This document shows positions 40,187-40,706 of a DNA stretch of 64,000 bases, piece after piece; positions within the stretch are counted from its first letter, which is position 1, and every line of letters begins with the position of its first letter. A program made the translations under genes and the position numbers. Source of the DNA: a phage; the sequence record PZ386959.1. The stretch is one strand, 5' to 3'. Under the pieces are notes generated by a model that saw only the letters and a program-made list of their open reading frames with translations, had not been told where the DNA came from and made no database searches.

Positions 40187-40261
40187 GAAACTTCGTAGTA
40201 TATTCACAATAGACTAAGCCTTTCTTATCTGGTAAATTTTTCAGGTAAGGAGGGCTTTTTC

Positions 40262-40440
40262 ATTTCAGATTTGTGCAGGTAGAGTTCTGTAGAGAAATCT
40301 ATAGAGAAAATTTTGAACTCCAAAGAGAAAATTCATTTTCAAACTGTGCAGGTAATCTCCAAAGGGTTTTTTCATTTTCAAAACGTGCAGAGAAAAATCA
40401 GGTCGGGCAAGAAAAATCATTTTAGAATTGTGCAGGTAGG
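40262..40440. repeat. 4 imperfect direct repeats (~45-60 bp) CATTTTCAAA.TGTGCAGGTA
   Basis: Copies near 40262, 40333, 40376 and 40416, followed by a C-rich pyrimidine tract CAGCCCAGCCCCTCTCCCACTCTTACTCCCCCTCTCCCC (40450-40492). Confidence 0.6.
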
Positions 40441-40706
40441 TTTTTATAGACAGCCAGCCCAGCCCCTCTCCCACTCTTACTCCCCCTCTCCCCAAAAGTC
40501 AAGAGAAAAATTTGTAGCGGATTGAAAAATAATTCTTGATTTGTGTTCTGCTTTGTGATAGTCGTGTGCGCCCGTTTCATTACAGTTTTGCCAAAAATAT
40601 TTTTAAAATTTTTCTTGACTCTTTGAGTGTGGTTATCTAATATTTGCATCAACGGGGAGGGAATGACCTTCCCCACTAAATAAAGTCCTAAACTGGAGAT
40701 TCAAAA

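Follow-up and report, generated by a model that had tools for sequence, protein, structure and literature searches.

A conserved array of direct repeats beside the terminal small-gene block of Felixounavirus genomes, possibly an iteron-like protein-binding element

Results

The locus and its four direct repeats

We analysed a 64,000-nucleotide stretch of phage DNA (record PZ386959.1; this whole stretch is called the window below) and focused on an array of four direct repeats, R1 to R4. The repeats sit in a 520-bp intergenic region (40187-40706), with a macro-domain gene on the 5' side and an array of small genes on the 3' side. The window is from a Felixounavirus, its best matches being KhF3, LF82P3, UAB_Phi87 and wV8 at 93-96% identity, and the 1.7 kb around the repeats has matches in 232 phage records. 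The macro-domain gene, labelled macro domain protein or phosphatase in the records of relatives, ends a long rightward early operon and is always found immediately 5' of the repeats. On the other side, the repeats open a 6.5-kb block of small genes that is closed by the right terminal repeat, and this block between the repeats and the genome end carries strong host-type promoters. The coordinates of all features are collected in Table 1.

Each repeat has a core of 22 nt, and all four are direct and share one orientation. The first-pass annotation of this DNA had placed four direct repeats between the macro-domain gene and the first module of the small-gene array, and the sequence bears this out. 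It had also described them as evenly spaced at ~45-60 bp, whereas the actual start-to-start distances are 73, 39 and 45 bp. Together with its upstream elements, a full unit spans about 40 bp and consists of a CTCCAAAGRG-like box, an A5 or T5 tract, TCATTT(T), seven nucleotides, GTGCA and then GGTA. A search with the 22-mer, allowing up to three mismatches, recovered only R2-R4 in the 64 kb, where 0.01 matches would be expected; R1 deviates from the 22-mer by four mismatches. The exact string TGTGCAGGTA occurs in the window only at 40272, 40345 and 40429.

A position weight matrix (PWM) built from orthologous sites was then used to scan the window. The four copies scored 31-41 bits, while the next best site reached 9.5 bits and the maximum in shuffled sequence was 14.5 bits. 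In the complete genome of I14.1 (89,359 bp), the same four sites were alone in scoring above 10 bits, and values elsewhere did not exceed 9.6 bits. The search for the motif elsewhere in the genome, which had been proposed as a check, thus finds the repeats confined to one locus in both the window and I14.1.

Table 1. Features of the repeat locus and its surroundings, in window coordinates (ORF, open reading frame; PWM, position weight matrix; RBS, ribosome-binding site; UTR, untranslated region).
Feature	Position	Strand	Basis and remarks
Macro-domain ('phosphatase', Tk.4-like) gene	39401..40186	+	ORF list; Pfam Macro, E 1.5e-7
Intrinsic terminator hairpin of the upstream operon	40216..40257	+	scan: 17 pairs, then TTTCATTTCA; RNA fold -25.8 kcal/mol
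Repeat R1, core TCATTTCAGATTTGTGCAGGTA	40260..40281	+	full unit including upstream box 40244-40281; PWM 40.9 bits
Repeat R2, core TCATTTTCAAACTGTGCAGGTA	40333..40354	+	unit 40317-40354; CTCCAAAGAG and AAAAT 5'; PWM 41.0 bits
Repeat R3, core TCATTTTCAAAACGTGCAGAGA	40372..40393	+	unit 40356-40393; CTCCAAAGGG and TTTTT 5'; PWM 30.9 bits
Repeat R4, core TCATTTTAGAATTGTGCAGGTA	40417..40438	+	unit 40401-40438; GGGCAAG and AAAAA 5'; PWM 38.1 bits
C-rich, G-poor tract (G-rich on the minus strand)	40451..40493	+	variable segment, two alleles
Ultra-conserved 46-bp block AAAAGTCAAGAGAAAAATTTGTAGCGGATTGAAAAATAATTCTTGA	40494..40539	.	two back-to-back UP/-35-like modules
Strong sigma-70-type promoter of the first small gene	40593..40643	+	A/T-rich UP-like, TTGACT 40615-40620, 17 nt, TAATAT 40638-40643
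5'-UTR hairpin GGGGAGG...CCTTCCCC	40654..40674	+	precedes the RBS of the first array gene
First small-array gene, 127 aa, function unassigned	40707..41090	+	ORF list; phrog_4495 (unknown function)
Homologue of the 581-bp direct terminal repeat (physical genome end)	46921..47500	.	mapped from relatives

Conservation of the repeats across phages

An array of 3-5 copies was found directly 3' of the macro-domain gene in all 31 of 31 Ounavirinae loci, as well as in the further loci recovered. These come from Felixounavirus, the Moogle-like phages, the Erwinia Kolesnikvirus and an uncultured Ounavirinae-like lineage, L145. Every relative examined has the repeats, and among them we saw none that keeps the small-gene array without them. 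Across 40 sites from 10 genomes, GTGCA is invariant, TCATTT is nearly so, and seven nucleotides separate the two. A comparison of Felix-type with Moogle-like phages gave an identity of 84% for the repeat units, against 45-60% for the spacers and 39-52% for the flanking coding DNA. Strong purifying selection on the repeat units is seen in at least four lineages. Copies in the same position (R1 with R1, and so on) are 0.81-0.86 alike between genomes, compared with 0.65 for copies in different positions, which indicates that the four copies predate the Felix-type and Moogle-like genera and that each has been individually maintained. The repeat array is real, unique, ancient, non-coding and under selection.

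The arrangement of the copies differs between lineages. Spacings of 73/39/45 bp in the window correspond to 75/41/45 in Moogle-like phages and to 37/37/39 in Kolesnikvirus. When the 520-bp intergenic region was compared by BLASTN with the Erwinia phages (Kolesnikvirus), it aligned at R2-R4 only; the layout in these phages matches, with a terminator, four repeats (TCATTTTCAATTTGTGCATAG), a short C-rich tract and a promoter in succession. The bases 3' of GTGCA are specific to the lineage, being GGTA in the Felix and Moogle types and TAGG in the Erwinia phages and L145. The L145 locus, with five repeats, is syntenic, and its macro protein is only 37% identical. No match to the repeat array was found in plasmids, in 5,426 E. 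coli genomes or in species-representative bacterial genomes (no Enterobacterales match), and a wider motif scan, covering viral contigs that have the motif once, returned mostly chance or coding-repeat matches.

Two kinds of variation were noted in these comparisons. Loci L136 and L152 are natural three-repeat variants with spacings of 75 and 45 bp, in which unrelated sequence occupies the position of R2. In L145 (reverse complement, 5600-5790, joined with L203), about ten TTAACA hexamers, at spacings of 22, 11, 26, 20, 11, 9 and 11 bp, directly follow the five TCATTT-N7-GTGCA repeats. A second TTAACA-rich region lies ~7.5 kb downstream, so that the terminal small-gene block of this lineage is flanked on both sides by such arrays.

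Elements flanking the repeats

The repeats are framed by signals for transcription. The terminator of the upstream operon, which the wV8 and KhF3 records also annotate as Rho-independent, provides with its T-run (40256-40259) the T5 tract of the R1 unit; R1 is in other words fused to the terminator. Beyond R4 and the C-rich tract comes the 46-bp block, which surpasses all other non-coding DNA of the region in conservation: Felix-type and Moogle-like phages are 92% identical in it, and 87% of its columns are invariant. The block is unique in the window. In these comparisons, the repeat array and the 46-bp block are the best-conserved non-coding DNA found in the early region. A 16-mer UP/-35 module of the main promoter recurs on both strands within the block. 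Its minus-strand module (TTGACT 40502-40497, 17 nt, TAAGAG 40479-40474) points left into the repeats, and its plus-strand module has TTGATT at 40536-40541; judging from their sequence, both are candidate promoters. At the equivalent place in Kolesnikvirus (locus L010, phiEa21-4, 1803-1774, minus strand) there is a consensus-like leftward promoter, TTGACG-18-TATACT, which stands back-to-back with the rightward array promoter and is aimed at the repeats, with no evident gene to serve. The strong promoter of the first small gene was found by the promoter scan and is conserved in relatives. The KhF3 record calls the hairpin that follows it a minus-strand terminator. The 127-aa protein encoded by the first array gene matched no Pfam family.

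The pyrimidine tract reported by the first-pass annotation is present, the string it quoted lying at 40455-40493. The 59 nt that separate R4 from the conserved block contain 46% C and 14% G. This tract is the least conserved piece of the region, with 16% invariant columns and 63% identity within the genus. A non-C-rich allele (C 19-27%) replaces it in 7 of about 25 Felixounavirus loci, and also in Bas63. The alternative sequence, GGTGGGGATGTCGCCATTTCTCACAAGGCTACC..., is unrelated, of similar length and partly G-rich on the plus strand; it occupies the segment 40439-40493 in loci L019, L021, L049, L053, L069, L080, L102 and L204, and the C-rich allele is found in the window, Felix O1, wV8 and the Moogle-like phages. 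Several assemblies break at this place, mostly in or next to the C/G-rich tract: MN850610.1 (Andreotti), MT446388.1 (TH10), KT184313.1 (KhF1), L022 and L060, the last with a contig that ends at the tract in Nextera adapter sequence. This suggests that record ends in the intergenic region reflect a weak spot of sequencing or assembly and not a genome end.

The physical end of the genome lies further downstream. A direct terminal repeat of 581 bp is annotated in Pr103Blw (among records arranged with PhageTerm) and is exact in I14.1, and that of UAB_Phi87 has been experimentally determined as 608 bp. In the complete, terminal-repeat-bounded genome of I14.1, R4 is 7.27 kb (8.1%) from the right end; this distance is about 5 to 7.3 kb in relatives. 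The part of the window from 46921 to 48000, comprising the terminal-repeat homologue and ~500 bp beyond it, is dense in TTAACA/TGTTAA(G) hexamers in both orientations and with 11-bp phasing (up to 17 per 500 bp, compared with fewer than 5 in the rest of the window). The homologue and the dense hexamers indicate that the window spans the genome's concatemer junction. GC skew (guanine versus cytosine) showed no switch at the repeat locus; it switches only at the terminal repeat, the point of convergent transcription.

Some further observations concern the window or the records compared with it. Within the leftward gene cluster there is a second large non-coding gap of ~515 bp (3340-3880). It contains two C/A-rich direct repeats of 83 nt (TACCACACCTCACCCAACC...; 3482-3564 and 3757-3839), a pair of 54-nt repeats and two hairpin-forming inverted repeats of 19 bp. 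On the plus strand, 26 tRNA genes are clustered at 58545-63556. The taxonomy line of PP892526.1 (vB_EcoM_I14.1) reads Tequintavirus/Demerecviridae, yet this genome is collinear with Felixounavirus. The present Felixounavirus region also turns up, at 96.6% identity, in GU169904.1 ('Staphylococcus phage SA1', 147 kb), a record that may therefore be chimeric or contaminated.

Known elements compared with the repeats

A number of familiar elements were considered and rejected. The repeats are not the genome terminus or a pac site, since the terminal repeat is found 6.5-6.7 kb downstream. A structured RNA is not indicated, as the fold z-scores are positive on both strands (+0.85 and +2.4), and Rfam gave no match in the region at E <=10. 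The repeats do not form an array of sigma-70 promoters either, the promoter scan having found none within 40260-40440 on either strand; in Kolesnikvirus, two of the four units give minus-strand sigma-70 matches, which is within chance expectation. When consensus sequences were compared by eye with the repeats, sigma-E, sigma-54, T4 late and middle promoters, RfaH ops, CRP, IHF, Fis, Fur and MarA sites did not fit all copies. There is no exact DnaA box (TTWTNCACA) in the 520 bp, and two sites with one mismatch compare with 1.5 expected. The Kolesnikvirus sequence TGTGCATAG matches the reverse complement of the DnaA box at 8 of 9 positions, and the Felix version at 6 of 9.

Discussion

A probable binding-site array with a possible origin-type role

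The first-pass annotation had read the repeats as a binding-site array for a regulator. The first half of this proposal is the one we favour, because the repeats are direct, unique, non-coding, unstructured and selected; the second half, a regulator of the small-gene array, fares less well and is taken up below. We infer that the repeats are an array of same-orientation bipartite sites for a sequence-specific protein. The lineage-specific bases 3' of GTGCA, together with the lack of a host counterpart, suggest that this protein is probably phage-encoded and co-evolving with its sites. The two parts of each site are TCATTT(T) and, after the seven-nucleotide gap, GTGCA; an A5 or T5 tract and a G/C-containing box lie on the 5' side. 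The array is located at the inner border of the 5-7-kb terminal block of small early genes, between the operon terminator and the back-to-back promoter block. Once bound, the protein may nucleate an origin-type nucleoprotein complex at the repeats, and replication would start there, aided by transcription from the adjacent promoters, as in the iteron origins of other phages. We tentatively place the probability of such an origin-type (iteron-like) role at about 30%; control of promoters or a transcription roadblock comes close behind and is nearly as likely.

Where phage intergenic DNA carries a cluster of at least four repeats in one orientation, the cluster is usually an origin, as with lambda ori, P1 oriR, P4 ori/crr, T4 oriE and lactococcal phage ori. 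The origin role is favoured because unique clusters of this kind, next to promoters and AT-rich DNA, have usually turned out to be phage origins, and L145 adds the phased TTAACA array. Iterons are recognised as three or more same-orientation direct repeats of about 17-22 bp, and there are four such repeats here and 3-5 in relatives. Windows of 40 bp with 20-25% GC occur at 40307, 40507 and 40587, in a genome that itself has only about 39% GC (Felix O1 genome paper), and no specific unwinding element can be named among them.

Several points weigh against an origin at the repeats. Their spacing is irregular and out of helical phase, both here (73/39/45) and in Kolesnikvirus (37/37/39). None of the ten neighbouring proteins, all of unknown function, is annotated in PHROGs as DNA-binding or as an initiator, and a Pfam search of ten further proteins gave just a Toprim-DnaB primase-helicase and one HTH_3 protein, with no initiator, most of the proteins being uncharacterised. 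The replisome looks T7-like, given the Toprim-DnaB fusion, and to our knowledge T7-type origins need no iterons. DnaA boxes are not enriched in the 520 bp. In Bas63, the probably spurious genes bas63_0096/0097 lie exactly on the repeats, and the PhageMaP study describes the 46-66-kb segment of Bas63, which includes the repeats, as uniformly non-essential. Small barcode insertions at the Bas63 repeats are therefore probably tolerated in laboratory hosts.

Control of transcription at the operon boundary

The explanation nearly on a par with an origin is that the repeats are an operator or roadblock array, where a bound phage or host protein would regulate the back-to-back promoters, the main array promoter or both, or would stop transcription that crosses the operon boundary in either direction. 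The position of the repeats between the terminator and the promoters is consistent with this, as is the adjoining divergent UP/-35 block with its high conservation. Estimated from coordinates, the repeats occupy positions ~30-210 nt downstream of the expected start of the candidate leftward promoter, which is where a roadblock would be placed, and the leftward promoter of Kolesnikvirus is consensus-like. A region that is probably non-essential in laboratory hosts also fits accessory regulation. In addition, the phage encodes an HTH_3 (Cro/C1-type) protein of 108 aa (2465-2791, minus strand). As no other sequence-specific DNA-binding protein was recognisable in the 20 proteins scanned, it is a candidate binder of the repeats. 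XRE-type regulators, however, normally bind inverted and not direct repeats. The leftward and first rightward promoter candidates have poor -10 elements (TAAGAG and TAGTCG) and failed the promoter scan. The distances are also awkward, as 100 bp separate R4 from the closest rightward -35 and 180 bp from that of the main promoter, and the motif is missing from all other promoters of the genome, including more than ten similar array promoters. A regulator dedicated to the small-gene array, as first proposed, is disfavoured by these last two points, the promoters of the other modules being without the motif and R4 lying 100-180 bp upstream of the nearest rightward -35 elements.

Rho loading, DNA entry, RNA and coding

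The other suggestion of the first-pass annotation was that the C-rich DNA is a site for Rho. In this explanation the tract would be a rut (Rho-loading) site that ends read-through transcripts before the array promoters, and the repeats would be incidental. The base composition of the 59 nt suits Rho loading, and RNA of the region is less structured than shuffled sequence (z +0.85). However, the repeats, which are the conserved part, are left unexplained, and the tract lies 3' of an intrinsic terminator of -25.8 kcal/mol, so that transcription reaching it needs read-through. The tract is moreover the least conserved piece and only one of two natural alleles, the other being non-C-rich in 7 of about 25 Felixounavirus loci. 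For this reason we consider the case for a Rho-loading site to be weak and the explanation unlikely; to judge from the natural variants, Rho loading is not a conserved requirement.

A bolder idea takes the repeats as a boundary or entry-pause signal resembling the injection stop of T5, marking the inner limit of a terminal block whose entry into the cell and expression come first. In this scheme the repeats, possibly together with the phased TTAACA hexamers, would halt DNA entry temporarily or direct end-specific replication until early proteins encoded in the small-gene block come into play. The position in I14.1, 8.1% (7.27 kb) from the right end, is close to the 7.9% of T5 first-step transfer, the terminal block consists of small genes with strong host-type promoters, and in L145 a terminal-repeat-like TTAACA array stands directly beside the repeats. 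The injection-stop region of T5 is likewise a conserved non-coding repeat cluster (Davison, bioRxiv 10.1101/866236). On the other hand, relatives differ in the distance from repeats to genome end (about 5 to 7.3 kb), the DnaA-box pairs characteristic of T5 are absent from the region, and the terminal repeat is 0.58 kb here and not 10 kb. We also know of no report of two-step DNA transfer in these contractile-tailed phages. While we judge this very unlikely, it would mean, if true, that a contractile-tailed phage uses unrelated sequences and an undescribed binding protein for a two-step strategy like that of T5.

We regard as still less plausible an element that works as RNA, in which a non-coding repeat transcript, probably leftward from the 40502-40497 module, would act as a sponge for protein or would imitate a ToxI-like type III antitoxin. 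The units of 37-45 nt in 3-5 tandem copies resemble type III antitoxins, which are tandem RNA repeats of about 36-45 nt, and units on the minus strand are A-rich (GAAAAUGA). There is a precedent in a phage-borne pseudo-ToxI (Blower et al. 2012, PMC3475682). Kolesnikvirus has a good leftward promoter, and reverse transcription PCR detected transcription over Felix O1 'ORF14', in an assay that was not strand-specific. Against this stand the lack of an Rfam match at E <=10 and of similar repeats in plasmids, the 5,426 E. coli genomes and the species-representative genomes, the non-uniform spacing (73/39/45) and the positive fold z-scores (+0.85, +2.4). A leftward terminator is missing and the leftward promoter is weak here, and on the plus strand the repeats follow a terminator. 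With no counterpart in the databases, we rejected mimicry of ToxI or pseudo-ToxI.

Small protein-coding genes have been annotated over the repeats in several records, on the plus strand in wV8 (gene 13, EU877232 7726-7890) and Felix O1 (ORF14) and on the minus strand as the genes Moogle115 (NC_027293 82112-82336), Pr103Blw_00144 (MW481326 81714-81872) and bas63_0096/0097 (MZ501086 64142-64457). Although ORFs of 50-76 codons do overlap the repeats in the window and several depositors called genes, a coding function is scarcely credible and these annotations are probably spurious, because the strand, frame and length of the ORFs vary between genomes and the distances between repeats change by 2 or 4 bp from one lineage to another (39/41, 45/43, 73/75/77), so that no reading frame is kept, while conservation tracks the repeat units and not codon positions.

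Significance

Felix O1 and related phages are classics of phage typing and biocontrol in which the start of replication and the timing of early transcription are unexplained; the Felix O1 genome paper itself describes temporal regulation as not understood. Our search of the literature on Felixounavirus transcriptomes, origins and repeats returned nothing on the element, and the genome papers of Felix O1 and wV8 and the UAB_Phi87 paper do not mention the array, which is therefore undescribed as far as the searchable literature shows. Because it is, with the 46-bp block, the best-conserved non-coding DNA of the early region, unique, undescribed and mis-annotated as small genes in several records, the array of four 22-bp sites offers a small and concrete target, both for fishing out a DNA-binding protein and for testing for an origin. 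Knowledge of it should also aid safe phage engineering, through the choice of insertion sites and the sparing of a cis-acting element.

Comparison with known systems

Known systems share some of the features of this locus and differ in others. Rut sites are unstructured, C-rich, G-poor RNA of about 60-80 nt, and the segment 40451-40493 is likewise C-rich, G-poor and unstructured as RNA. Unlike them, it is preceded by a strong intrinsic terminator, measures only about 45-59 nt (the 59-nt stretch being at the lower length limit for rut) and is dispensable in natural variants. The repeats resemble ToxI and pseudo-ToxI in being tandem direct repeats of ~36-45 nt in phage non-coding DNA beside accessory genes, but here there is no Rfam match, host counterpart, uniform unit, framing promoter and terminator, or predicted structure.

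With the T5 iss (injection-stop) regions, the locus shares a conserved, untranslated cluster of repeats that borders on its inner side a terminal block, ~8% of the genome, made up of small early genes with strong host-type promoters, and non-coding repeats that are better conserved than the neighbouring ORFs. In T5, however, paired DnaA boxes, large inverted repeats and palindromes are found within a 10-kb terminal repeat, whereas here there are only direct repeats, no DnaA boxes and a terminal repeat of 0.58 kb that is 6.7 kb away. The Mu repressor sites O1-O3 and the P1 C1 operators are also multiple asymmetric sites near early promoters and a terminator boundary. Those sites overlap or closely flank promoters and recur at several loci, in contrast to the present motif, which is found at one locus and 100-300 bp from the rightward promoters.

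Iteron origins of phages and plasmids, among them the lactococcal phage ori/'per' elements, differ from the array in that no cognate initiator gene has been identified here, the spacing is irregular, there is no resemblance to known iterons and insertions are probably tolerated in Bas63. The likeness lies in 3-5 same-orientation repeats of ~20 bp with a bipartite core, confined to a single non-coding locus near promoters and AT-rich DNA, and in a motif that co-varies with the lineage.

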